DNA of 64,000 nt from Brenneria bubanii (GTDB taxonomy: Bacteria; Pseudomonadota; Gammaproteobacteria; Enterobacterales; Enterobacteriaceae): assembly GCA_022378355.1 (NCBI GenBank), contig JAKMAJ010000010.1, positions 105,719 through 169,718 on the forward strand. The letters run 5' to 3'. Every line of letters begins with the position of its first letter. Positions within the stretch are counted from its first letter, which is position 1. Shown piece by piece: positions 26,631-52,956 of this stretch. The position numbers and the translations under genes are program-made. Under the pieces are notes generated by a model, which worked only from the letters and a program-made list of their open reading frames with translations, made no database searches and was not told where the DNA came from.

Positions 26631-28841
<2,211 letters not shown>

Positions 28842-29075: not shown

Positions 29076-30428
29076 TCAACGCATGGTAACGAACTCTTCC
29101 GATGCCGTCGGGTGGATGGCCACCGTGTTGTCGAAATCCTTTTTGGTGGCGCCCATCTTCAGCGCCACCGCAAAGCCCTGCAGCATTTCGTCCATACCAA
29201 AGCCGATACCATGGATGCCGACAATCTTCTCTTCCTTGCCGACGCAGACCAGCTTCATACGACACGGCTGGCGATGCTGCGTCACGGCGGTGTACATGGC
29301 GGTGAAAGAAGAGGTATAAACCTTCACCTTATCCTCGCCATACTGTTCACGCGCCTGCGGTTCGGTCAGCCCAACGGTGCCGATGGGCGGATGGCTGAAC
29401 ACCACGGTGGGAATATTGCTGTAATCCAGATGTTCATCAGGTTTGTTATTGAACAGACGCTCTGACAAACGGCGGCCTGCGGCGACGGCGACCGGGGTCA
29501 ACTCCACCGCGCCGGTGTTGTCGCCCACGGCGTAAATGCCCGGCACATTGGTGTTTTGGAAGCGATCGACCCGGATATAGCCTTTGTCGTCCAGCGTCAC
29601 ATCGACGGCGCTCAGGTTCAGCTTATCCGTTGCCGGCTCGCGGCCGATGGCCCAGATCAGGCAATCAACGGTGTGTTCTTTGCCGTTTTCCAACTGCAGC
29701 GTCAGGCTGCCGTCGGCATTTTTCACCACCGCTTTAGGAATCGACTCGGTATGCAGCGTCGGCCCTTCGTTGTTCATCACCTCAACCAGCGTCTCGACAA
29801 TCAGCGGATCGAAGCTGCGCAGCGGCGACTGTTTGCGCACAAACAGGTGCGTTTGCGAACCCAGCGCGTTTACCACGCCGGCAATCTCGACGGCGATATA
29901 GCCGGCGCCGACGATAGCGGTGCGTTTCGGCAGCGCGTCCAGTTCAAAGAAGCCGTCGGAATCAATACCGAATTCGGCGCCGGGAACGTCAGGCCGTACC
30001 GGGCGGCCGCCGGTGGCGATCAGAATATGATCGGCGGTAATTTTTTCGCCGTTGACCTCCACCATGCGCGCATCGACAAAGCGGGCGAATCCGCGAATGA
30101 CATCCACCTTGTTTTTGCCCAGCACGTTATCGTAAGACTGGTGAATTCGGTCAATATAGGCGCTACGATTTTTAATCAGCGTCCCCCAGTCAAACCGGTT
30201 GACCGTGGTATCAAAACCGTAATCCGGACCATATTGGTGAATCGCTTCGGCGATCTGCGCCGCATGCCACATCACTTTTTTCGGCACGCAGCCAACGTTG
30301 ACACAGGTACCGCCCAGATATTTGGCTTCGATCAACGCACATTTCTTGCCGTACATGGCGGCACGGTTAATGGAGGCAATGCCGCCGCTGCCGCCGCCAA
30401 TGGCGAGATAGTCATAATGTTTAGTCAT
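29076..30428 (-). CDS. gor: Glutathione reductase
   Basis: Near-identity along its length to E. coli Gor ([27 protein letters not shown]…[13 protein letters not shown]…[12 protein letters not shown]). Confidence 0.95.
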
Positions 30429-30594
30429 TGGGAGATCCAGCTTGTGTGAATAAAAAGTTATATAGAGTGTAACGCCAGATATCTTATTCCGGCAAAGATC
30501 GTAGCCCGATTGTAGTCCGAAATGCTAAGCGCCCTGCGGCGATTTTTGAAATCAATTCAATAGGCGAGGCCGCTTTACCGGGCCTCGCGCAACG

Positions 30595-31389
30595 TCAAAC
30601 GCCGGTCAGCACGGTCTCATACAGCAGCCGATCCAACGCGGCGTCGAGGCGTTCGTCCTTTGCCGGTGGTGAGATGGCTATCGCGGTTTCCAGCGACTGC
30701 GCGATAAACGCGTGGATATGCGGTTGCCGCGCCACCACATCGGCCTCTATCGCGCTGCATTTCATTTTCAGCAGCGCCCGAACCTCTGCCAGCAGGGCGG
30801 GATCCGTCACCATCGCGTTCAGCAACACCTCGAACTGCATAGGCGGCGCTCCCCTCCCTTCGGCAATCCACTGCATCGCCAGCAGCGAGCGCAGCACGTA
30901 AAAATACTTTTTCAGCCGCACGCGCTCATCCTGCAAATAGCTGCGAAAGTTTTTACGCGCGATGGAGAGGTAATGATGACTCGCCTTGAGCGCGGAAAAA
31001 CAGCCGGGGATCAACTGGCGCAGCCGGTCCGTCGCGATATCGTCCTGCCGGTAGACCACCGGTGAGTCCAGCCATTCGATAAGCGTGGGGTTGCCCCGGT
31101 TCAATAGCGCCAACGCTTTGCGCAATTCCCAGCCGCAGACGTCCAACGCCGCCGTCAGCGGACGTTCGATCACGTCAGGCTGCGGTTCAACCCGCAGATA
31201 CCACTGCGGCGGATGAACGTAGATGAATCGGACATCATAATCACTGTCCGGCGAGGCGAATCCCCAGCCGCGGCTGCCGGACTCGCAGGCGTACAGAATG
31301 CGGACATCGAACGCCTGTTCCACTTCGTCCAGCGCCGCGTTGATCTGCTGTTTCATTACTTCGCTGACGCCCTGAGATGCCTGTGTCAT
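30595..31389 (-). CDS. Pol-beta-superfamily nucleotidyltransferase with a C-terminal alpha-helical domain, function unknown; second gene of the putative RtcR-controlled sigma54 operon
   Basis: Minimal-NTase motif GS-x9-DxD (ESGSRGWGFASPDSDYDVRFIYV) and a third acidic residue in …ALDVCGWEL…, followed by about 150 aa of helical sequence. GGGAGGGAAAGGA Shine-Dalgarno. Lies 43 bp downstream of the SPFH gene on the same strand. Confidence 0.65.
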   Translation of the reverse strand: MTQASQGVSEVMKQQINAALDEVEQAFDVRILYACESGSRGWGFASPDSDYDVRFIYVHPPQWYLRVEPQPDVIERPLTAALDVCGWELRKALALLNRGNPTLIEWLDSPVVYRQDDIATDRLRQLIPGCFSALKASHHYLSIARKNFRSYLQDERVRLKKYFYVLRSLLAMQWIAEGRGAPPMQFEVLLNAMVTDPALLAEVRALLKMKCSAIEADVVARQPHIHAFIAQSLETAIAISPPAKDERLDAALDRLLYETVLTGV

Positions 31390-31432
31390 ATCCTTTCCCT
31401 CCCGTTCGGTGCGTCGCCGCTGCCTGCAGCAG

Positions 31433-32569
31433 TTACGCCCCCTTTAAATTCACTAATCCGTTCAACACCTGATCCAACCCGCCGAACACGGAAATTTTAT
31501 CGATGCGTTCCGCCACGCGCTCCAACGTTTCCAGCTCCTTCAAGCGCAGCGCGACCGGGTTGTTTTCCATCACTTTGGCGGTATTCAGCAGGGAACGCGT
31601 CGCCGACGTTTCTTCCCGACGTCGTATCACGTTGGCCTGCGCCGCCTTTTCCGCCTCCACCACCTGAGACAGGATGGTTTTCATATCGCCCGGCAGCACG
31701 ATATCCTTCACCCCCAGAGAAACCACGTCGATGCCGTAACCGGCTATTTTTTCACGAACCTGCGCGTTGACCCGTTCATCGATGAACTGCTTGTTTTCCA
31801 GCAGTTCATCCAGCGTGCGGGTTCCCACGGCTTCACGCAACGCGAACTGCAGCTCGCGGTACAACGAATCCACCGGTTTGGTTAACTGGCCGAAGGCCGT
31901 TAAAACGTCGTTATAGCGCCAGTTGGCCACCAGATTGAGCCGCAGGTTGACCTTATCGCGCGTCAAAATTTCCTGCCCGCTTACTTCCAGCGCCTGCTGA
32001 CGAGTGTCCACCATTTCCAGCTCTACGCTGTGGTTAAAACGCCAGTAGCCGCTGACGCCGGGCGGCAACAGCTCCCGCGCCGCGCCATCGACCTTCAAGA
32101 GGCCCAGATGCCATGCCGGCACCTGCGCCAGCAGGACGCCGGCATGTCCGATCACCTGTCGCTGACGCAGCTTCGGCTGCAGCAGTGCCGACACCAGCGC
32201 GTCCGGCACCCGGATGTCCTCGGTTTTCACCTGTTCGACGCGCTGATGTTCATCCTTACGCCAGTAAAGTCGACGCGTGGCGGGCGGCAGAATTTCCTGC
32301 AGCACATCATGATCGTAGCGAAGCCCGATCGTCTCTTCCGGCAATACCACATCCAGACAAAACTGCTTTACCCATTCCGGATGGTACTGGCGCAGGTAGT
32401 CGTCCAAAGGCGCCAGCACTTCAGAACCATCCAGAGACACGACTTCAATTTTTTGTCGATTAAACCAACGGGAAATACGGTGCCGACCCGCTTCCAATAC
32501 CTGCAGGTAGTCGCCGTCTTTGCTCACCAAACCCAGCTGACCTTTACGAATTGTTATGAACTTAAACAT
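31433..32569 (-). CDS. SPFH/band-7 (stomatin/slipin-like) domain protein with no TM segment, carrying a roughly 190-aa N-terminal domain of unknown function; first gene of the sigma54 operon divergent from rtcR
   Basis: The C-terminal half matches the stomatin SPFH core (…TRDKVNLRLNLVANWRY…GIDVVSLGVKDIVLPGDMKTILSQVVEAEKAAQANVIRRREETSATRSL…NPVALRLKELETLERVAERIDKISVF). Start placed at MFKFITIRKG (AGGAGA Shine-Dalgarno 9 nt upstream), not at the upstream in-frame Met at 32665. Confidence 0.75.
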   Translation of the reverse strand: MFKFITIRKGQLGLVSKDGDYLQVLEAGRHRISRWFNRQKIEVVSLDGSEVLAPLDDYLRQYHPEWVKQFCLDVVLPEETIGLRYDHDVLQEILPPATRRLYWRKDEHQRVEQVKTEDIRVPDALVSALLQPKLRQRQVIGHAGVLLAQVPAWHLGLLKVDGAARELLPPGVSGYWRFNHSVELEMVDTRQQALEVSGQEILTRDKVNLRLNLVANWRYNDVLTAFGQLTKPVDSLYRELQFALREAVGTRTLDELLENKQFIDERVNAQVREKIAGYGIDVVSLGVKDIVLPGDMKTILSQVVEAEKAAQANVIRRREETSATRSLLNTAKVMENNPVALRLKELETLERVAERIDKISVFGGLDQVLNGLVNLKGA

Positions 32570-32764
32570 TAATCTTTTTCTCCTGATGACCCCTCCGGCA
32601 CACGAGGAGACGAACGTCGGGGCGAAGCCGCAGGGGGAAAGCTCAGGGTTCCTGATGGAACGCATCAGCCTTCTGCCTGCCGCCCGGCGCGTCGGTCAGT
32701 CTCTCGTGAGGCAATCGTCAACTTCCCGGTTGCGGGAGGGTTATTTTTTCATTACCAATATCAA

Positions 32765-32791
32765 GGTGCGATGTTCGGGATTCGAACCCGA
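32765..32791 (-). other. tRNA 3'-fragment-like element (T-stem-loop plus acceptor 3' strand) within the 5' leader of the SPFH/NTase operon
   Basis: The minus strand reads TCGGG-TTCGAAT-CCCGA-ACATCGC-A-CCt. This is a perfect 5-bp T-stem with the canonical 7-nt TTCGAAT loop, a 7-nt acceptor 3' strand, a discriminator and CC. No matching 5' half (GCGATGT…) is found nearby, so it is not a complete tRNA gene. Confidence 0.5.
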
Positions 32792-32916
32792 ATTAACCGG
32801 TTATCAAGTGTTCGACGCCTGACGGAACATTCACAGGAAAGCGGCGACAGGCCGCTCCTGGAATGCCGGCGTGGTGCTGAATCACAGCAAAACCAACGCG
32901 TCGACGAGAGAGGTAA

Positions 32917-32932
32917 TGCGAAAGGCGTGCCA
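32917..32932 (-). promoter_or_regulatory. Sigma54 -24/-12 promoter, the putative RtcR target, driving the SPFH/NTase operon
   Basis: The minus strand reads TGGCACGccttTCGCA, one mismatch from TGGCACG-N4-TTGCA. It sits in the intergenic region shared with rtcR, about 335 nt upstream of the SPFH ATG. A candidate IHF-like site (tATCAgtgaaTTAt) and direct repeats lie just upstream. Confidence 0.6.
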
Positions 32933-32961
32933 GCAGCAAGAAAACCACGAATAAAAATTAT

Positions 32962-33000
32962 AATTCACTGATAATTAATATATTTTACTGAATTCACTTA
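32962..33000. repeat. Direct repeats AATTCACTGA / AATTCACTTA, 29 bp apart, in the rtcR/sigma54-operon intergenic region; candidate enhancer (UAS) for RtcR
   Basis: Two 10-mer copies sharing 9 of 10 bases at 32962-32971 and 32991-33000. The second copy is embedded in the palindrome TGAATTCA. Confidence 0.35.
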
Positions 33001-33069
33001 AAGCTATACTGTTCAGGCCCGCATGAATAAACTATCTTTAAAGATAAGAATTTATAAATTAGGATAAAC

Positions 33070-34653
33070 ATGAAACGCAGAGTGGTGATTGGCGCGCTGG
33101 GCACCGTCCTGGATAAACGCGGCAAACGGGCCAACCGCTGGAATAAATGGCGGCCGACGGTCGCACTATGCCAACAGCCGGAGATGCCGGTGAGCCGGCT
33201 TGAATTACTGTACCAATCGCGCCACATCGGTCTGGCGGAACAGGTTCGCGCGGACATCGCCGCGCTGTCGCCCGCAACCGAAGTACGTCTGCATGCCGTC
33301 GATTTGTTGGATGCCTGGGATTTTGAGGAGGTCTACACCGCGTTTCTCGACTTCGCCACCCGCTACACGTTCGACACCGAGAACGAAGAATATCTGGTAC
33401 ACATCACCACCGGCACCCACGTCGCGCAGATCTGTTGGTTTCTGCTGACGGAGGCGCGCTACCTGCCGGCCTGCCTGCTGCAAACCAGTCCGTCCCCCCG
33501 GCATGAAGACGCCCCGACTCCAGCCGGCGTCTATTCGATTATCGACCTGGACCTCAGCCGCTACGCGACGCTGACGAGCCGCTTTCAACAGGAGCAGCAG
33601 GCGTCGGCCTCGTTTTTGAAAGCCGGCATTGCGACGCGCAACACGGCGTACAATGCCTTGATTGACCAAATCGAGCGCGTCGCGCTGCGCTCCGCCGCGC
33701 CGTTGTTGCTCACCGGGCCGACCGGCGCGGGAAAATCCTTTCTGGCGCGGCGGATCTACGAATTAAAAGCCGCTCGCCATCAGGTTTCAGGCCGCTTCGT
33801 CGCCGTCAACTGCGCGACGCTGCGAGGAGACAATGCGATGTCGACGCTGTTCGGGCACGCCCGGGGCGCGTTTACCGGCGCGCAGCAGGCGCGAACCGGA
33901 CTGCTGAGGGAAGCGGACGGCGGCATTCTGTTCCTGGATGAAGTCGGCGAACTGGGTCTGGATGAACAGGCTATGTTGCTGAAAGCGATTGAAGAAAAAA
34001 CCTTTTTTCCCTTCGGCTCAGATAAGGAAGTCAGCAGCGATTTTCAACTGATCGCCGGTACGCATCGCGATATGCCGCGCTGGGTCGCGGCCGGCCATTT
34101 CCGTGACGATCTCTACGCGCGCATCAATATGTGGACCTTTCCCCTCCCCGGCTTGGCGGCGCGGCGTGAAGATATCGAGCCCAATATCGACTTTGAGCTA
34201 CAGCGTTTTGCCGAGACGCAGCTGCTGCAAGTCCGCTTTGACCGCGAAGCGCGCCAGCGATTCCTGGGATTCGCCTGCTCGCCGCAGGCGCCGTGGCACG
34301 GCAATTTCAGAGAATTAAGCGCCAGCGTCGTCAGAATGGCGACATTGGCCGATAATGGCCGCATTACCCTCGCGCTGGTCGACGAAGAGATTTGGCGCCT
34401 GCAGCGGCAGTGGGCGCCCGGCGACGCCGAGCAAGCGCCTCTACCGGAGCGCGTCGGCGACTGCGATCTGTTCGACCGCCTCCAGTTGGAAAGCGTGCTG
34501 AACCTGTGCCGTCAGGCCGGCAGCCTGTCGGAAGCGGGCCGCCGGCTATTCGCCGTCTCACGCCTGCAGAAAAAAAACCCGAACGACGCCGACCGGCTGC
34601 GCAAGTATCTGGCGCGGTTCGATCTCAGATGGGATGACGTCAAACACCATTAA
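33070..34653 (+). CDS. rtcR: Sigma54-dependent transcriptional activator RtcR (N-terminal CARF domain, AAA+ sigma54-interaction domain, C-terminal HTH)
   Basis: Colinear with E. coli RtcR over its full length, including MK…GALGTVLDKRGKRANRWNKWRPTVALCQQ…, the Walker A LLTGPTGAGKSFLARRI, the GAFTGA-type loop (GHARGAFTGAQQ) and the end DADRLRKYLARFDLRWDDVK. Confidence 0.9.
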   Translation: MKRRVVIGALGTVLDKRGKRANRWNKWRPTVALCQQPEMPVSRLELLYQSRHIGLAEQVRADIAALSPATEVRLHAVDLLDAWDFEEVYTAFLDFATRYTFDTENEEYLVHITTGTHVAQICWFLLTEARYLPACLLQTSPSPRHEDAPTPAGVYSIIDLDLSRYATLTSRFQQEQQASASFLKAGIATRNTAYNALIDQIERVALRSAAPLLLTGPTGAGKSFLARRIYELKAARHQVSGRFVAVNCATLRGDNAMSTLFGHARGAFTGAQQARTGLLREADGGILFLDEVGELGLDEQAMLLKAIEEKTFFPFGSDKEVSSDFQLIAGTHRDMPRWVAAGHFRDDLYARINMWTFPLPGLAARREDIEPNIDFELQRFAETQLLQVRFDREARQRFLGFACSPQAPWHGNFRELSASVVRMATLADNGRITLALVDEEIWRLQRQWAPGDAEQAPLPERVGDCDLFDRLQLESVLNLCRQAGSLSEAGRRLFAVSRLQKKNPNDADRLRKYLARFDLRWDDVKHH

Positions 34654-34672
34654 TTGATCGGAGCGTTTCACC

Positions 34673-35587
34673 ATGGAACTGATTTTTTTAGGCACCAGCG
34701 CGGGCATCCCGACGAAAGAACGCAACGTGACCAGCCTGGCGCTGAACCTGCATAACCCGCATCCCGCCTTTTGGCTGTTCGACTGCGGTGAAGGTACGCA
34801 GCATCAGATGCTGCACACGCGTTTAAGCGCCAGCAAGATCGAGAAAATCTTCATCACGCACCTCCATGGCGATCATCTGTTTGGCCTGCCCGGCCTGCTG
34901 TGCTCCCGCTCGATGGCCGGTTGTCAGGCGCCGCTGACGCTCTACGGTCCTGCCGGGCTGAAAACGTTTATCGATAACGCGCTGAGCCTGAGCGGCTCTT
35001 ATCTCACCTACCCCCTGGAGGTGATCGAAGTCACCTCCGGACCGGTTTGCGAAGACGAGCGCCGTGTGGTGACGGCCTATCCGATGTCGCACACGCTGAC
35101 CTGCGTCGGCTATCGCATCGAAGAGCGGCCTAAACCCGGCGCGCTGGACGTCGCGCGGCTAACGAACGAGAGCATTCGCCCCGGCCCCTGGTTTCAGCAA
35201 TTAAAACGCGGCGAATCCGTCACGCTGGAGGATGGGCGTACCCTAAACGGCGCCGACTACCTCGGACCGTCCACGCCGGGCCGATCGCTCGCGATATTCG
35301 GCGATACCCGCCCGTCGGAAGCGGGACGTATGCTGGCCGCCGGGGTGGATGTAATGGTGCACGAAGCGACGATGGAGGCCAATATGGCCGAGAGCGCCAA
35401 CGCGCGCGGCCATTCCACGACGGAACAGGCGGCGACGCTGGCTCGGGAAGCGGGGGCGGGACGTTTGATTATCACCCACGTCAGCGCGCGATATGGTCAG
35501 GAAGACAGCAAGCGGCTGCTGGCGGAGTGCCGGGCCATTTTCCCGGCCACGAACATGGCTACCGATCTGGCCACCTTCAGGGTGTAG
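34673..35587 (+). CDS. rbn: Ribonuclease BN / RNase Z (metallo-beta-lactamase tRNA 3'-processing endonuclease)
   Basis: Near-colinear with E. coli RNase BN (ElaC): [14 protein letters not shown]…NVT…[12 protein letters not shown]…[19 protein letters not shown]…[15 protein letters not shown]…LIITHVS. Lies 19 bp after the rtcR stop with its own GGAG Shine-Dalgarno. Confidence 0.9.
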
Positions 35588-35632
35588 CGCGCTCCCAGTG
35601 CCCTGCGCCGCAGGGCACGAGCGCCGCCGAAG

Positions 35633-36475
35633 TTACTCCGGCACAATCTGTTCAACGCTGATGTGCCCGGTGCCTGCCGGAACCAGCGCCTGATGCAGCC
35701 AGGGCAGCACGCTTTCCATCTGCGCTTTCAGCTTCCACGGCGGGTTGATCACCACCATGCCGGAAGCCGTCATGCCGTGCCGATCGCTGTCCGGCAATAC
35801 CGCCAGCTCGATCTGCAAAATATTACGGATGCCGGTAGCGTCCAAATCTTTCAGTAGCCGTTTGATTTGCTGGCGCAGCACGACCGGATACCACAGCGCA
35901 TAGACGCCTGTCGCGAAGCGGCGGTAACCTTCGTGAATCCCCTTCACCACCGCCTGGTAATCCGTTTTCAATTCATACGGCGGATCGATCAGCACAAAAC
36001 CGCGACGCGACAGCGGCGGCAGCTGCGACTTCAGCTGCTGGTAGCCGTCTTCGCGTAAGACTTTAGCGCGGGCATCTTTCTGAAATTCATTGCGCAACAG
36101 CGGAAAATCGCTCGGATGCAGCTCCGTCAGGTGTAATTTATCCTGCTCGCGCAACAGCTGACGGGCAATCAGCGGCGAACCGGGGTAATAGCGCAGTTGA
36201 GCGTTGTGATTATAGGTGCGAACCGCCTGCATATAAGGCTCAAGCTCGGCAGGGATATCATCGCGCTGCCAGATTTTAGCGATGCCGTCCAGATACTCGC
36301 CGGTGCGTTCCGCATGCTCGCCGCTCAATTGATAGCGCCCGGCTCCCGCATGGGTGTCCAGATACAGGAAGGGTTTTTCTTTTTCTTTCAGCGCGGTGAT
36401 GATCAGGCTCTGAACGGTGTGTTTCACCACATCGGCATGGTTGCCGGCGTGAAAACTATGGCGGTAACTTAGCAT
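35633..36475 (-). CDS. rlmJ: 23S rRNA (adenine2030-N6)-methyltransferase
   Basis: Near-identical to E. coli RlmJ/YhiR (MLSYRHSFHAGNHADV.KHTVQSLII…DPPYE…). Confidence 0.9.
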   Translation of the reverse strand: MLSYRHSFHAGNHADVVKHTVQSLIITALKEKEKPFLYLDTHAGAGRYQLSGEHAERTGEYLDGIAKIWQRDDIPAELEPYMQAVRTYNHNAQLRYYPGSPLIARQLLREQDKLHLTELHPSDFPLLRNEFQKDARAKVLREDGYQQLKSQLPPLSRRGFVLIDPPYELKTDYQAVVKGIHEGYRRFATGVYALWYPVVLRQQIKRLLKDLDATGIRNILQIELAVLPDSDRHGMTASGMVVINPPWKLKAQMESVLPWLHQALVPAGTGHISVEQIVPE

Positions 36476-36805
36476 AGCGACTCTTGCTTTCCGGTGAGAT
36501 ATTTTATGAGAAAAATCAGTTAATGCTTTTTATTCCCCCATGTCGGCCCGTAGCGACCTCAACGCGCCGGAAAACACAGTAAACAGGAAAGAAAAGCCAT
36601 AGCGCACAGTATAAACGGTCTGCCGGTAAAAATATCCTCACAATGCGGCCTCCGTGCCCTACCGAGGGTAAACCACCGGCTTCAATATGATTTTTATTAC
36701 TTTTATTTTAAACATTGCCGCTTTTAACGTATAGAAAGCTACCGATATTCATCAACATGAAGTACGCTTTTCCTCCACAAGCGATGAAATGGAACATTAA
36801 CTGAC

Positions 36806-37510
36806 ATGTTACCTGAAAATGAGCGTTGGTTACTGGCGCTTTCCGCACCGATGGTCGCGCTTAATATCCAGTGTGGCGCCAATTACCGCGACCATTCCTT
36901 TTACCCGCCCGGAATGGATGCTGAGATTGACCGCTCCTGGGGGATCGATAACCGCGAGGCGTTGATCGCCATGATCAACCGCATGACCGATAACGGTCAT
37001 GCTGAGCATCTGGCTTACCACTATTTTCTGTGGCATCACATTTCACTGGCCGACTGGCAGGATTACTGCGCTCATCAATCGGCGGAAGAACAGGCGGTGA
37101 TGACGCTGGTAGGCGAGACGGCGGCGCTGTGCGGCGAAGGCGGCATACGCGCCTGGGATTTGGGCAGGATGAGCTTTCTAAGCCGAGTCGGCCTGTTAAA
37201 CGGATGGTTGAACGAAACGGAAAGCCTGTGGATCCATACCCGGTTGGCCGACCGCGCCCGCTACTACTACCGCAGTTGGCAGAACTATTTCGCCGCCTTT
37301 TTCGTTGGACGCACCTTCTGGATGGCCTCGGATGAAGAGGATCCAACGCTACAACGTTATGCCCATAGCCATTACACCGAGATGCCCAGATACATCGAGC
37401 AATTCTGTTCGCTTTACACCCATCCCGACAGCCCGGTGCATAACCTCGAGTGGGATATGGATATCTTACAAATAGACAAACCTGAGTCGCTATCGGGAGC
37501 AGAAATATAA
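36806..37510 (+). CDS. DUF1266-family protein (YbeU/YbeR-like), partner of the J-protein/HscC module
   Basis: 234 aa with a YbeU-like sequence. Immediately upstream of, and overlapping, the J-domain gene. Confidence 0.6.
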   Translation: MLPENERWLLALSAPMVALNIQCGANYRDHSFYPPGMDAEIDRSWGIDNREALIAMINRMTDNGHAEHLAYHYFLWHHISLADWQDYCAHQSAEEQAVMTLVGETAALCGEGGIRAWDLGRMSFLSRVGLLNGWLNETESLWIHTRLADRARYYYRSWQNYFAAFFVGRTFWMASDEEDPTLQRYAHSHYTEMPRYIEQFCSLYTHPDSPVHNLEWDMDILQIDKPESLSGAEI

Positions 37511-40149
37511 TGGATACCCAGTGCTGGCAATTATTAGGCATTGAGCCAACGCAAGACCTGGACATTATTCGTCAGGCTTATCGGCAAAAAGTGCCGCAAT
37601 TTCACCCGGAAACCGACCCTGAAGGCTTCAAACGGCTGCGTCAGGCCTACGATACCGCCAGCAGGCTGGCGCAAACCCCGCCCGACGAAAATCGCGCGGA
37701 AGAGGCAGCGAAGCCCGCGGAAGAGGATAGCGAATTAACGCCGCTACAGACCGCCTTCGACCAGTTGCTGAGCAATCCGGCGCAGCGGTGCGACCCGCAA
37801 CATTGGCAACGTTATATTCACTTACTGAACCAGCACAGCGTAGACGTTATTGACCGTATTCGCTGGCCCCTGCTGCAACGTCTTTCTCAGGAACCCGGTC
37901 TCGCAAACCGCTGCGCGCAAATGCTGGCCGAGCGTATGCGTTGGCAACAGCGTCTGGACGAGCTGGCCGATGCCCCGAGGGAGGAAATCAGAGACTTTCT
38001 GGACTCGCTTGAACAAGACGACCTGTTCGATTTTTCACTCTTATCGCACCTGAGCCTGCCGGCGCAATTGCAAACGATTTTCTACTTTCAGCAAGCCAAT
38101 GGGCTGTTCTGGAACCGTCCGTGGTTTGCGCTGAAAGCCCATCTGTGCATCGCTACCACCATTTACTGGCCCGATACCCCAGACTTGATGCGACGGTTAG
38201 TCCGCTGGCACAGCCATGCGGAACAGCCCTGCGCGCAGTTGCGGGATTACTGTCTGCAACAGATGGCGGAAAAACCGGAAGATGATGACTGGCTGTATCT
38301 CGCCGCCCGCCACTGTTCGCTGTGCGATGATCAACAGCAGGCATTCGCGCTCTGGTTCAGACTTTATCAGCGTAACCGCCATCCTCAGGCCGAACAGTGG
38401 ATTCTAGACTGGTGCGCCGCTCATCAGGACGATCTGCTGCCTTTGCTGATTCAGTCACTCAATCATACGCCGGCGCCGGATCTGTCCGGGCTGCCGGTTG
38501 AGGCGCCGCAACAATCCTTTTTTATCTCGCAACACAATACGCAAATGATGGCGCGCTGGGGAATGGCGCTACGGCAGTCGCTTCTCCCGCAGGCGCAAGA
38601 TTTTATCCTGTGGCGACTGGGTAAACAGGACATATCGGTCATCTACCGCCACCTGTTGCAAAATCACGGCGGCAGCGCTCACCAGATGCTCTATTGGCAC
38701 GCCTGCATGCTGACGCTGGGCGATGAGCGCCTGTTGCAGGACATACTCGACCAGCCTCAACCGGAAGATCCGCTGCACGCGCTGATCCTTCAGGGGTTAC
38801 AAACGCAGGCGGCGCAACGTCTGTCATGGCTGGCCTCATCGGCGATTATTCAGGTTTTCACCCAATGGCTGGCGGACCCGGCATCGCCGCTGCCCGAGGC
38901 GTTCACTCAGGAAGACTCCGCGAGTTGGCATCAGGCTCAGGCCTGGCTGCGGCAATTTCGCGCCTTGCCGCCGGACAGCTTGCGGAAACTCTATGACGCC
39001 GGATTGCCGCAGCAGCGGATTGAACCGATAAAAGATTGTCTGGCCGATCTGTTGCCCGATATCACGCTTGATCTGTCCCTGAACGAAGACAATACCAGCG
39101 CCCGTGACGCGCTACGGCAAGCCATACTGCTGGCCGTGATGCTGGACGATCCGCTGGATGACCTGATCACCACCGCCCGGTCGACGCTGCCGCCGCCGAC
39201 GTCGGCGCACCCGGCTCATTCGCTCTTCGCGCTATTCGATGGGGCGGATGCCTGGCAGGAGGATACCGCCACGGCATTGAAACAGCGCTTGACGTTGAGC
39301 GACCCGCTGCATTACCGCCACTGGCTGAAGCTGCCGGTATCGATAGAAGAGTACGTCGATAATACGCAAAGCGTCAGCTTTTTAGCCGCCGACGAATTCT
39401 ACCGTCGTAATCGGCGTTGGCGAGTAACGCTGGCGCAATCTCCGGCTATTTACCAGTTGTTCTTCCATGCCTTTTACGCATTACTGAGCGCGGGGGAGCC
39501 GGCCGAGCGGCATCGTCATCACCTCGAACAGCTGGAGGTTAATACTGAACTCGAGGAGCAAATCAGACATGAGCTGCTTAACGGGCCGTCGGAAGCATTA
39601 CCGAAGCTGTTAACACAGCTTTCCAGCGATAAGCGGATCACCGAGACGGGCTGCATCATTAATGATTTAGCCAAAAAAGACAGTAATTTGCCCGATACCA
39701 GCGAAGGGGATTTTCTGCTCGAATACGTCAACTATCCGCATGAAAATATCACCCTGCGGCTGATAGCGAAAACCTTACTGCAACTGGCCGAGCAACGGGA
39801 AAGTCATTTCAGAACGACGGCTCCGGCCAAGGCAAGCCACGTATGGCAGTTCTGGCGCCTCAATAGCCGCATTAACCGCGTTGGCTACCTGCTTCAGGCG
39901 GGACTGGGCAGCATGATCATCCACTACGCAAGCCACGGCATCCCTGCGTCCATACCCTATCACCACCTCATACCGCTGTTGCTGATAGTAGCCAATGTCT
40001 TTATCGCCACGCGCCGACGATTTAATGATATGGGGCATAGCGCGCCGCAAAAAGGGGCGATCATCACCATGCTGTTGCCGATATTGCTGCTGTTGCCGTT
40101 AATCGGGCCGGGCTCAAAGGGCTGGAACAAATTCGGGCCGCCGCAATAA
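37510..40149 (+). CDS. Membrane-anchored J-domain co-chaperone (DjlB/DjlC-like) with a C-terminal DUF805-like TM region; unusually long at 879 aa
   Basis: N-terminal J-domain-like segment (WQLLGIEPTQDLDIIRQAYRQKVPQFHPETDPEGFKRLRQAYD) carrying HPE instead of HPD. The C-terminus has TM helices and an RRRFNDMGHS motif reminiscent of DUF805. Convergent with hscC. Confidence 0.65.
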   Translation: MDTQCWQLLGIEPTQDLDIIRQAYRQKVPQFHPETDPEGFKRLRQAYDTASRLAQTPPDENRAEEAAKPAEEDSELTPLQTAFDQLLSNPAQRCDPQHWQRYIHLLNQHSVDVIDRIRWPLLQRLSQEPGLANRCAQMLAERMRWQQRLDELADAPREEIRDFLDSLEQDDLFDFSLLSHLSLPAQLQTIFYFQQANGLFWNRPWFALKAHLCIATTIYWPDTPDLMRRLVRWHSHAEQPCAQLRDYCLQQMAEKPEDDDWLYLAARHCSLCDDQQQAFALWFRLYQRNRHPQAEQWILDWCAAHQDDLLPLLIQSLNHTPAPDLSGLPVEAPQQSFFISQHNTQMMARWGMALRQSLLPQAQDFILWRLGKQDISVIYRHLLQNHGGSAHQMLYWHACMLTLGDERLLQDILDQPQPEDPLHALILQGLQTQAAQRLSWLASSAIIQVFTQWLADPASPLPEAFTQEDSASWHQAQAWLRQFRALPPDSLRKLYDAGLPQQRIEPIKDCLADLLPDITLDLSLNEDNTSARDALRQAILLAVMLDDPLDDLITTARSTLPPPTSAHPAHSLFALFDGADAWQEDTATALKQRLTLSDPLHYRHWLKLPVSIEEYVDNTQSVSFLAADEFYRRNRRWRVTLAQSPAIYQLFFHAFYALLSAGEPAERHRHHLEQLEVNTELEEQIRHELLNGPSEALPKLLTQLSSDKRITETGCIINDLAKKDSNLPDTSEGDFLLEYVNYPHENITLRLIAKTLLQLAEQRESHFRTTAPAKASHVWQFWRLNSRINRVGYLLQAGLGSMIIHYASHGIPASIPYHHLIPLLLIVANVFIATRRRFNDMGHSAPQKGAIITMLLPILLLLPLIGPGSKGWNKFGPPQ

Positions 40150-52879: not shown

Positions 52880-52956
<77 letters not shown>

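Follow-up and report, generated by a model that had tools for sequence, protein, structure and literature searches.

A conserved rtcR–rbn gene pair in Enterobacterales and a possible place for RNase BN/Z in the bacterial response to tRNA damage

To our knowledge, the sigma-54-dependent activator RtcR is the only CARF-domain sensor that responds to broken tRNAs. Its CARF domain binds 5' tRNA halves that end in a 2',3'-cyclic phosphate, and the formation of those halves has been attributed to metal-independent endonucleases (PMC7790460). Several other descriptions bear on the genes that accompany it. A 2011 paper on Acinetobacter genomes describes rtcBA and rtcR as 'separated by rntZ', with rntZ alone left in strains that lack the corresponding island (PMC3224125). 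The nucleotidyltransferase RlaP adds one or two nucleotides to the 3'-OH ends of damaged RNA (PMC12776372), and a b7a-tRNA (for 'band 7-associated tRNA') has been predicted but never validated, according to Wang et al., who credit Burroughs and Aravind 2016. Finally, ELAC1 and TMS5, both short-form RNase Z enzymes, are described in two reports as stripping the 2',3'-cyclic phosphate from tRNA that lacks CCA, before the CCA is added again (PMC10275265; PMC11897441). The present analysis concerns a stretch of 64,000 nucleotides from Brenneria bubanii (assembly GCA_022378355.1, contig JAKMAJ010000010.1, positions 105,719 to 169,718; hereafter 'the window'), in which rtcR is followed on the same strand by rbn (also named rnz or elaC), the gene for RNase BN/Z.

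With a confidence a little above even, rtcR and rbn are read here as an old two-gene unit in which the nuclease serves the same tRNA-damage pathway as the sensor; that reading is drawn from the maintenance of the pair through rearrangements of its flanks in three families, and from the presence of an RNase Z gene (rnz) beside rtcR in Acinetobacter. The conservation of gene order moderately suggests a functional coupling of RNase BN with the Rtc response to tRNA damage, and analogy with related enzymes weakly suggests the biochemical step by which it might act on tRNA ends.

The rtcR–rbn pair and its distribution

The identities of the two genes are clear. The 527-residue RtcR of the window (33070–34653, + strand) joins an N-terminal RtcR/CARF-like domain (PF06956, 274 bits) to a sigma-54 AAA+ domain (PF00158), and passes the NCBIfam RtcR equivalog model NF038308 at 828.9 bits, where 650 are required. 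The 304-residue product of rbn (34673–35587, + strand) passes both the RNase Z equivalog NF000800 (507.9 against 398) and TIGR02651 (345.8 against 292.95) and falls below the narrower, exception-level model for 'true RNase BN', TIGR02649 (448.8 against 563.7); despite that shortfall, the tree described below groups it with the enterobacterial rbn orthologues. It is colinear from end to end with the RNase Z/ZiPD of Escherichia coli (2CBN, 426 bits), at 61–63% identity to E. coli RNase BN, and its zinc motif HLHGDH (residues 64–69) aligns with 2CBN at the H, D and H positions. The closest database matches are the RNase Z proteins of Lonsdalea (89–92% identity, with L. britannica at 92%), from which the window was assigned to a Lonsdalea-like member of the Pectobacteriaceae, and more distant relatives are also recognized, including human ELAC1 (3ZWF, E = 6e-57) and the RNase Z of Bacillus (322.6 bits). 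By these comparisons the protein is a short-form RNase Z/BN, with a predicted activity as a tRNA 3'-end nuclease.

The two genes are separated by a spacer of only 19 nucleotides (34654–34672), which extends from the TAA stop codon of rtcR (34651–34653) to the ATG of rbn (34673) and contains a Shine-Dalgarno sequence, GGAG (34660–34663), ending 9 nucleotides ahead of that start. A consensus scan of the + strand from 32739 to the end of rbn found no terminator-like sites. Both the sequence and the open reading frames, together with that scan, agree with a first-pass annotation of the same DNA, which had described rbn as beginning 19 bp after the rtcR stop with its own Shine-Dalgarno and no intervening terminator. 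The same annotation held that the only strong hairpin lies downstream of rbn, and this survives in part: the 9-bp stem at 35598–35618 is real, and forms the inner portion of an extended hairpin (35589–35624, assigned to no strand, −27 kcal/mol) that is the strongest 36-nucleotide fold within 33000–35660 and is unique in the window, but a comparable hairpin (34515–34550, −24.8 kcal/mol), which likewise lacks a U tract, is found within rtcR itself. The downstream hairpin has a U tract on neither strand, and is therefore not a canonical intrinsic terminator. Most of the relatives examined also have a GC-rich hairpin at this place between rbn and rlmJ, though the sequences are unrelated, a recurrence that fits a 3'-end element shared by convergent genes; the hairpin of the window is probably a 3'-end or terminator element common to rbn and rlmJ.

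Two promoter candidates within rtcR were considered and rejected. A single weak sigma-70-like match (34328–34356, TCGTCA-17-GATAAT, 9 of 12 positions) is not above chance, one such match having been found where 2.6 were expected. A sigma-54-like site that faces rbn (34294–34309) encodes the conserved WRGNFRE motif and is a by-product of coding; its TGGCAC arises from an R-to-H codon specific to the window, and the site is found at no other locus where rtcR and rbn are adjacent. A consensus scan of the region upstream of rtcR (32933–33069) was also without a sigma-70 match. The spacer itself is near-identical across seven loci of the Lonsdalea group. Its length is 19 nucleotides in Lonsdalea and Erwinia, 12 in Xenorhabdus, 9 in Proteus, 22 in a metagenome-assembled genome (MAG), 60 in Pantoea and 44–75 in Providencia, and the ribosome-binding site of rbn falls partly on the stop codon of rtcR in Xenorhabdus, and within the 3' end of the rtcR gene in Proteus. 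The earlier view that the pair is positioned for co-transcription is borne out by the shared strand, the short gap, the lack of a terminator and a promoter-like match at chance level only. Judged from geometry and conservation, co-transcription is very likely, since the spacers leave no room for a promoter or a terminator, since the pair outlives changes in both flanks as operon pairs do, and since rbn appears to retain transcription derived from upstream after rtcR has been lost.

The distribution of the pair was established by a scan for RtcR across one genome per species (GTDB representatives), which yielded 80 loci whose neighbouring genes were mapped by tblastn and by clustering of open reading frames. 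At 17 of the 80, rbn lies directly downstream of rtcR on the same strand, with gaps of 9–75 nucleotides, and at two more the genes are parted by an insertion. The 17 loci comprise five from the Lonsdalea group (those representing L. britannica, L. quercina and L. iberica, together with 'Brenneria sp. L3-3Z'); Erwinia persicina (two representatives), Erwinia sp. Eh17-17 and Pantoea coffeiphila from the Erwiniaceae; and three Providencia, two Proteus and two Xenorhabdus loci together with a related MAG. Lonsdalea and the Erwiniaceae have gor and rlmJ as flanking genes, and Providencia, Proteus and Xenorhabdus have unrelated flanks that also differ from one another. The adjacency spans three families of the Enterobacterales and at least four flanking contexts.

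The arrangement was found at none of the approximately 38 Enterobacteriaceae loci among the 80, in which the module is placed between lysC and rluF and a transporter gene follows rtcR, and the gene-order maps also lack it at the loci of Pectobacterium, Serratia, Morganella, Enterobacillus and Leminorella. In E. coli, where rbn has matches in 5421 of 5426 complete genomes at a median of one place per genome, the gene sits between elaA and elaD in the one genome examined, in keeping with the earlier statement that the rtcR–rbn arrangement is missing from that species; Cronobacter shows the order elaA-rbn. The first-pass annotation had further asked whether the adjacency is conserved among genomes carrying a gene pair for an SPFH/Band-7 protein and a nucleotidyltransferase. 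Conservation is indeed observed, but it follows lineage rather than that pair: SPFH and RlaP genes are present at nearly all Enterobacteriaceae loci, yet rtcR and rbn are not adjacent there, and Xenorhabdus, the MAG (locus L047) and Pantoea coffeiphila possess the rtcR–rbn pair in the absence of an SPFH gene. The gene-order maps thereby rule out that the adjacency tracks the SPFH gene and its b7a leader.

The two interrupted loci belong to Erwinia rhapontici and Erwinia sp. AnSW2-5, in which 2.2–2.9 kb of repeated small genes are inserted between rtcR and rbn. The repeats encode proteins of approximately 159 residues, with a signal-peptide-like N-terminus, and of approximately 282 residues (locus L051, 9585–12440; locus L069, 9585–11823); similar arrays are also present beyond the RlaP gene at these loci, and may represent immunity or toxin-cassette-like repeats.

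Trees built by neighbour joining, for RtcR and for Rbn alike, recover taxonomy at the level of the family, and in the Rbn tree the rtcR-adjacent sequences cluster with non-adjacent sequences from the same family (Erwinia tasmaniensis, Pantoea BAV 3049, Affinibrenneria and Dickeya poaceiphila). The rbn gene of the window is therefore an ordinary, vertically inherited RNase BN/Z, and its interpretation as a specialised, horizontally acquired paralogue was ruled out by the same trees. The simplest history looks to be an ancestral rtcR–rbn linkage that was later lost in the Enterobacteriaceae, Pectobacterium, Serratia and Morganella; such a history is supported by several decayed sites, which also show rbn to outlive rtcR. 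In Affinibrenneria salicis (locus L003, 8660–9000) the coding region of rtcR has been deleted together with RlaP, while an intact SPFH reading frame, its leader and its sigma-54 promoter survive, deprived of their activator; directly before rbn there remain the rtcR promoter region, a degenerate 5' end of rtcR in which ATG has become CTG, and its last ten or so nucleotides with the Shine-Dalgarno. In E. tasmaniensis (locus L085, 3931–7001) the rtc module has been replaced by a type I restriction-modification system, hsdMSR, the hsdR frame of which is fused at its end to the last eight or so codons of rtcR, and the 19-nucleotide junction to rbn is retained. In Pantoea BAV 3049, gor is followed after 179 nucleotides by rbn, and Dickeya poaceiphila displays the order glmS-rbn-rlmJ.

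A comparable association was encountered outside the Enterobacterales, where the sample of rtcR loci consisted of plasmid and chromid records searched by tblastn. Acinetobacter baumannii, A. haemolyticus and A. venetianus have rnz in the interval from rtcR to rtcB, divergent from rtcR at a distance of 67 bp, and in the A. baumannii sequence a sigma-54 promoter (TGGCACACTCAGTGCA) was located between rnz and rtcB. The same order is found in A. wuhouensis, with an insertion sequence (IS) element between rtcR and rnz, while in Acinetobacter sp. MB5 rnz is beside rtcA only; rtcR and an RNase Z gene are therefore associated in four of the five Acinetobacter genomes examined. The Acinetobacter and Lonsdalea-type RNase Z proteins share only 30% identity (140 bits), compared with 54% for RtcR and 67% for RtcB, and the Rbn of the window is closer by bit score to the Bacillus enzyme than to that of Acinetobacter (322.6 against 140). 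The low identity and the different geometry indicate that a different RNase Z lineage stands beside rtcR in Acinetobacter, and the association there appears to be independent, which argues against pure accident. In Enterobacterales and Acinetobacter alike, the RNase Z gene is found on the constitutive side, that of the sensor, and outside the induced operon.

Among side observations on these loci, the rtc operons of Acinetobacter (loci L096, L097 and L099) carry genes for DUF7684 and DUF6847 proteins between rtcB and rtcA, and in A. venetianus (L099, 11443–12012) a gene for the RNA 2'-phosphotransferase KptA (PF01885) follows rtcA. On the Shinella plasmid pShin-02 (locus L091, 1103–4574), two RtcB paralogues and prfH are placed under a single rtcR regulator; this set is an RtcB2-PrfH ribosome-repair module, and adjoins a VapBC pair.

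The divergent operon and the surrounding genes

On the − strand, facing away from rtcR, a sigma-54 promoter (32917–32932, TGGCACGCCTTTCGCA) with one mismatch to the consensus lies approximately 250 nucleotides upstream of the SPFH start codon and drives the divergent operon. It aligns with TGGCAC-N5-T(C/G)GCA in all of the related loci, and its position is also conserved. Between it and rtcR is an AT-rich region (32933–33069, + strand) that is the presumptive site of the rtcR promoter, and hence of the rbn promoter, as well as of the enhancer sites for RtcR. The first gene of the RtcR-dependent operon encodes the SPFH/Band-7 protein (31433–32665, − strand; PF01145) and the second and last encodes the RlaP nucleotidyltransferase (30595–31389, − strand; PF10127, 309.6 bits). 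These are the only genes between the promoter and gor, so that neither rtcB nor rtcA, and hence neither the RtcB ligase nor the RtcA cyclase of a canonical Rtc operon, is found there, whereas relatives have rtcB between the SPFH and RlaP genes. With rtcB and rtcA missing, it may be asked by what route RtcR is activated and what receives the product of RlaP. The two genes are likewise missing from loci of Klebsiella and from some of Citrobacter (L040, L044, L056, L063 and L071).

Between the promoter and the SPFH gene lies a structured leader RNA (32666–32905, − strand) of approximately 240 nucleotides, homologues of which were recovered by nhmmer at 38 loci. The fold predicted by RNAalifold comprises 26 pairs, 15 of them with compensatory changes, and includes an invariant tRNA T-arm (GGGTTCGAATCCC). 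On the 3' side of its acceptor-like strand the leader reads TTCGC/ATCGC-A-CC, without an encoded A76 in many species, and in Lonsdalea and many relatives that strand is followed by A-CC-U rather than by CCA. A search of Rfam (E ≤ 1, over 30000–37000) returned no hit, and the only call by ARAGORN was a tRNA-Pro at 52880; the leader is therefore neither a catalogued RNA nor a callable tRNA. Its position, T-arm and covarying helices were seen and a full cloverleaf was not recovered, with no call from either program; by these features the leader matches, and probably corresponds to, the predicted b7a-tRNA.

The chromosomal flanks of the module are formed on the left by gor (29076–30428, − strand; NF004776, 783 bits), and on the right by rlmJ (35633–36475, − strand; PF04378, 383.6 bits), which converges with rbn. 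Farther to the left lies katG (26658–28841, + strand), identified from the list of open reading frames and a domain and family profile search. Past rlmJ, at 36806–40149, a DUF1266 gene overlaps by one nucleotide a gene for an 879-residue protein, of which the sole recognizable feature is a weak N-terminal DnaJ domain.

Explanations for the linkage

On the preferred reading, rtcR and rbn are very probably read together from a constitutive rtcR promoter, with transcription ending at the hairpin after rbn, and the RtcR-activated sigma-54 promoter fires in the opposite direction, through the tRNA-like leader and on into the genes for the SPFH protein and RlaP. Since rbn is a normal inherited RNase BN/Z rather than a specialised copy, it is its expression that would be tied to the sensor, and not to the induced effectors. 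Its most probable role would be a standing 'end-healing' activity, co-expressed with the sensor and acting on broken or aberrant tRNA 3' ends, in which RNase BN/Z would clear away incorrect 3' residues or a 2',3'-cyclic phosphate, and the CCA-adding enzyme, RlaP or a ligase would then complete the repair. The same activity would incidentally leave fewer of the tRNA pieces with a cyclic-phosphate end that activate RtcR. Such a healing or clearing role has a precedent in the removal of cyclic phosphate by ELAC1 and TMS5. A number of observations weigh on the other side. We know of no cyclic-phosphatase activity, or activity on tRNA halves, for a bacterial RNase BN, and tRNAs that end in CCA are poor substrates for the enzyme. 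No RNase Z gene was found near rtcR at the loci examined in Burkholderia, Ralstonia, Shinella, Xanthomonas, Photobacterium, a Pseudomonas megaplasmid, Variovorax and Methylosinus. The rbn gene remains where rtcR has been lost (in A. salicis, E. tasmaniensis, Pantoea BAV 3049 and D. poaceiphila) and rtcR exists without an adjoining rbn in Pectobacterium, Serratia and Morganella, so that each gene persists unpaired and the link is not obligatory; both clearly work unlinked in the Enterobacteriaceae. A rather unlikely variant of the proposal would make RNase BN/Z, a zinc phosphodiesterase co-expressed with RtcR, a reset enzyme, which opens or removes the 2',3'-cyclic phosphate on tRNA-derived ligands, or degrades those ligands, and so switches the CARF domain of RtcR off, by analogy with the ring nucleases that silence the CARF effectors of type III CRISPR systems. 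Were that the case, the placement of RNase Z on the side of the sensor in both Enterobacterales and Acinetobacter would be a design feature.

The persistence of the pair might also be explained without any shared function, if the genes are co-transcribed only because rbn lost its own promoter long ago, so that any break in the linkage would silence it. The trees, in which rbn behaves as a housekeeping orthologue, are in agreement with such frozen synteny, as are the retention of rbn after the deletion or replacement of rtcR (E. tasmaniensis having kept it behind hsdR with the same 19-nucleotide junction), its solitary position 179 nucleotides from gor in Pantoea BAV 3049, the lack of linkage between rtcR and rbn throughout the Enterobacteriaceae, and the absence of rnz from most of the non-enterobacterial rtcR loci examined. 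It accounts poorly, however, for the appearance of a non-orthologous RNase Z (30% identity), in another geometry, beside rtcR in four of five Acinetobacter genomes, and for a linkage that has outlasted both flanks in the Morganellaceae; frozen synteny is accordingly regarded as possible but on the whole doubtful, and if it were the only basis of the link, the pair would merit an ordinary note on operon structure. A separate proposal, which is compatible with the other explanations rather than exclusive of them, is that most transcription of rbn starts at a promoter of its own within the 3' part of rtcR, the two neighbours being regulated independently. That is unlikely: the sigma-70-like match at 34328–34356 and the ordinary upstream region that rbn possesses where rtcR is absent (as in Pantoea BAV 3049) are in its favour, but that match does not exceed chance, the sigma-54-like site at 34294 is a window-specific by-product of WRGNFRE, and the gaps of 9–22 nucleotides, with a Shine-Dalgarno that overlaps the stop codon in Xenorhabdus or lies inside rtcR in Proteus, point to coupling.

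Two further explanations would assign RNase BN/Z a different substrate or a different place in the pathway. It might mature the b7a-tRNA leader, by cutting on the 3' side of the tRNA-like fold as occurs in CCA-less precursors, and the conserved, covarying leader with its invariant T-arm between the sigma-54 promoter and the SPFH gene, as well as the A-CC-U in place of CCA after the acceptor-like strand in Lonsdalea and many relatives, would suit such a reaction; RNase Z is also named in the literature as an enzyme that might open tRNA-like and permuted RNAs. The C74-C75 pair is an anti-determinant for RNase Z, and the A-CC motif at the 3' side of the leader thus weighs against this reaction. 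Furthermore, Xenorhabdus, the MAG (L047) and Pantoea coffeiphila possess rtcR–rbn but no SPFH gene, their intergenic regions between rtcR and the operon are too short for a leader of approximately 250 nucleotides, and nhmmer found no homologue in them; Acinetobacter has rnz but no Band-7 gene; and neither ARAGORN nor Rfam calls the leader a tRNA. Maturation of the leader is consequently held to be quite improbable. The remaining proposal, which had been put forward in the first-pass annotation, is that RNase BN/Z generates the tRNA fragments that activate RtcR; the gene does sit with the sensor rather than with the induced effectors, in Enterobacterales and Acinetobacter both. RNase Z/BN, however, is a zinc-dependent hydrolase whose cut falls at the acceptor end and yields a 3'-OH, a chemistry with which the proposal conflicts. 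It also conflicts with the nature of the RtcR ligands, which are 5' halves of tRNAs cut in the anticodon loop, attributed to metal-independent endonucleases, and which carry a 2',3'-cyclic phosphate (PMC7790460). Generation of the signal by RNase BN is thus very improbable. The preferred reading remains a pathway role in healing tRNA ends, by which the inducing signal would also be lowered, at the strength given at the outset.

Comparison with described systems

The genes described here, and the Rtc system itself, were already known; what is new is the recognition that Rtc loci repeatedly carry an RNase Z gene linked to rtcR. A search of the literature found nothing that links RtcR to RNase BN, and its sole relevant mention of an RNase Z near rtcR was the passing remark in PMC3224125. 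Hughes et al. 2020 make no mention of rbn, elaC or RNase BN, and in the works consulted that cite Burroughs and Aravind 2016, and in a 2025 preprint on RlaP, RNase Z is not mentioned as a neighbour.

The regulator of the window belongs to the same family as that of the E. coli rtcR/rtcBA locus (the RtcR equivalog), and in both cases a divergent sigma-54 promoter faces away from rtcR. The operon that it controls differs, consisting in the window of the tRNA-like leader and the SPFH/Band-7 and RlaP genes, without rtcB or rtcA, and rtcR is followed by rbn, a gene that E. coli keeps between elaA and elaD. The Rbn protein resembles E. coli RNase BN/Z (2CBN) in its full-length colinearity and identity, its HxHxDH zinc motif and its vertical descent by family; unlike that enzyme, it falls under the TIGR02649 cut-off and its gene is embedded behind rtcR rather than monocistronic. 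The effector side of the locus is closest to the Band-7/b7a-tRNA/RtcB/RlaP neighbourhoods of Burroughs and Aravind 2016, as relayed in bioRxiv 10.1101/312249, in which a tRNA-like RNA precedes the Band-7 gene, RlaP is downstream and RtcR is divergent, except that the window is without RtcB.

The nearest parallel for the RNase Z gene is the Acinetobacter arrangement rtcR-rnz-rtcB...rtcA (island G51, PMC3224125), where it also stands beside rtcR and on the constitutive side of the sigma-54 promoter, as located in A. baumannii. Unlike in the window, rnz is divergent there (by 67 bp) and placed between rtcR and rtcB, and the operon consists of rtcB, DUF7684, DUF6847, rtcA and sometimes KptA. The conserved rtcR–rbn pair and its echo in Acinetobacter together provide a concrete hypothesis that is cheap to test, that RNase BN/Z takes part in the bacterial response to tRNA damage through healing or ligand clearing.

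For ELAC1 and rice TMS5 we know of no link to a transcriptional sensor. These enzymes are eukaryotic and act downstream of ANKZF1/Vms1, in which respects they differ from the Rbn of the window; they share with it the enzyme family and, if the proposal is correct, the repair of tRNA ends bearing a 2',3'-cyclic phosphate as a theme, and the role of RNase BN/Z in bacteria would then parallel that of ELAC1 and TMS5 in eukaryotes.

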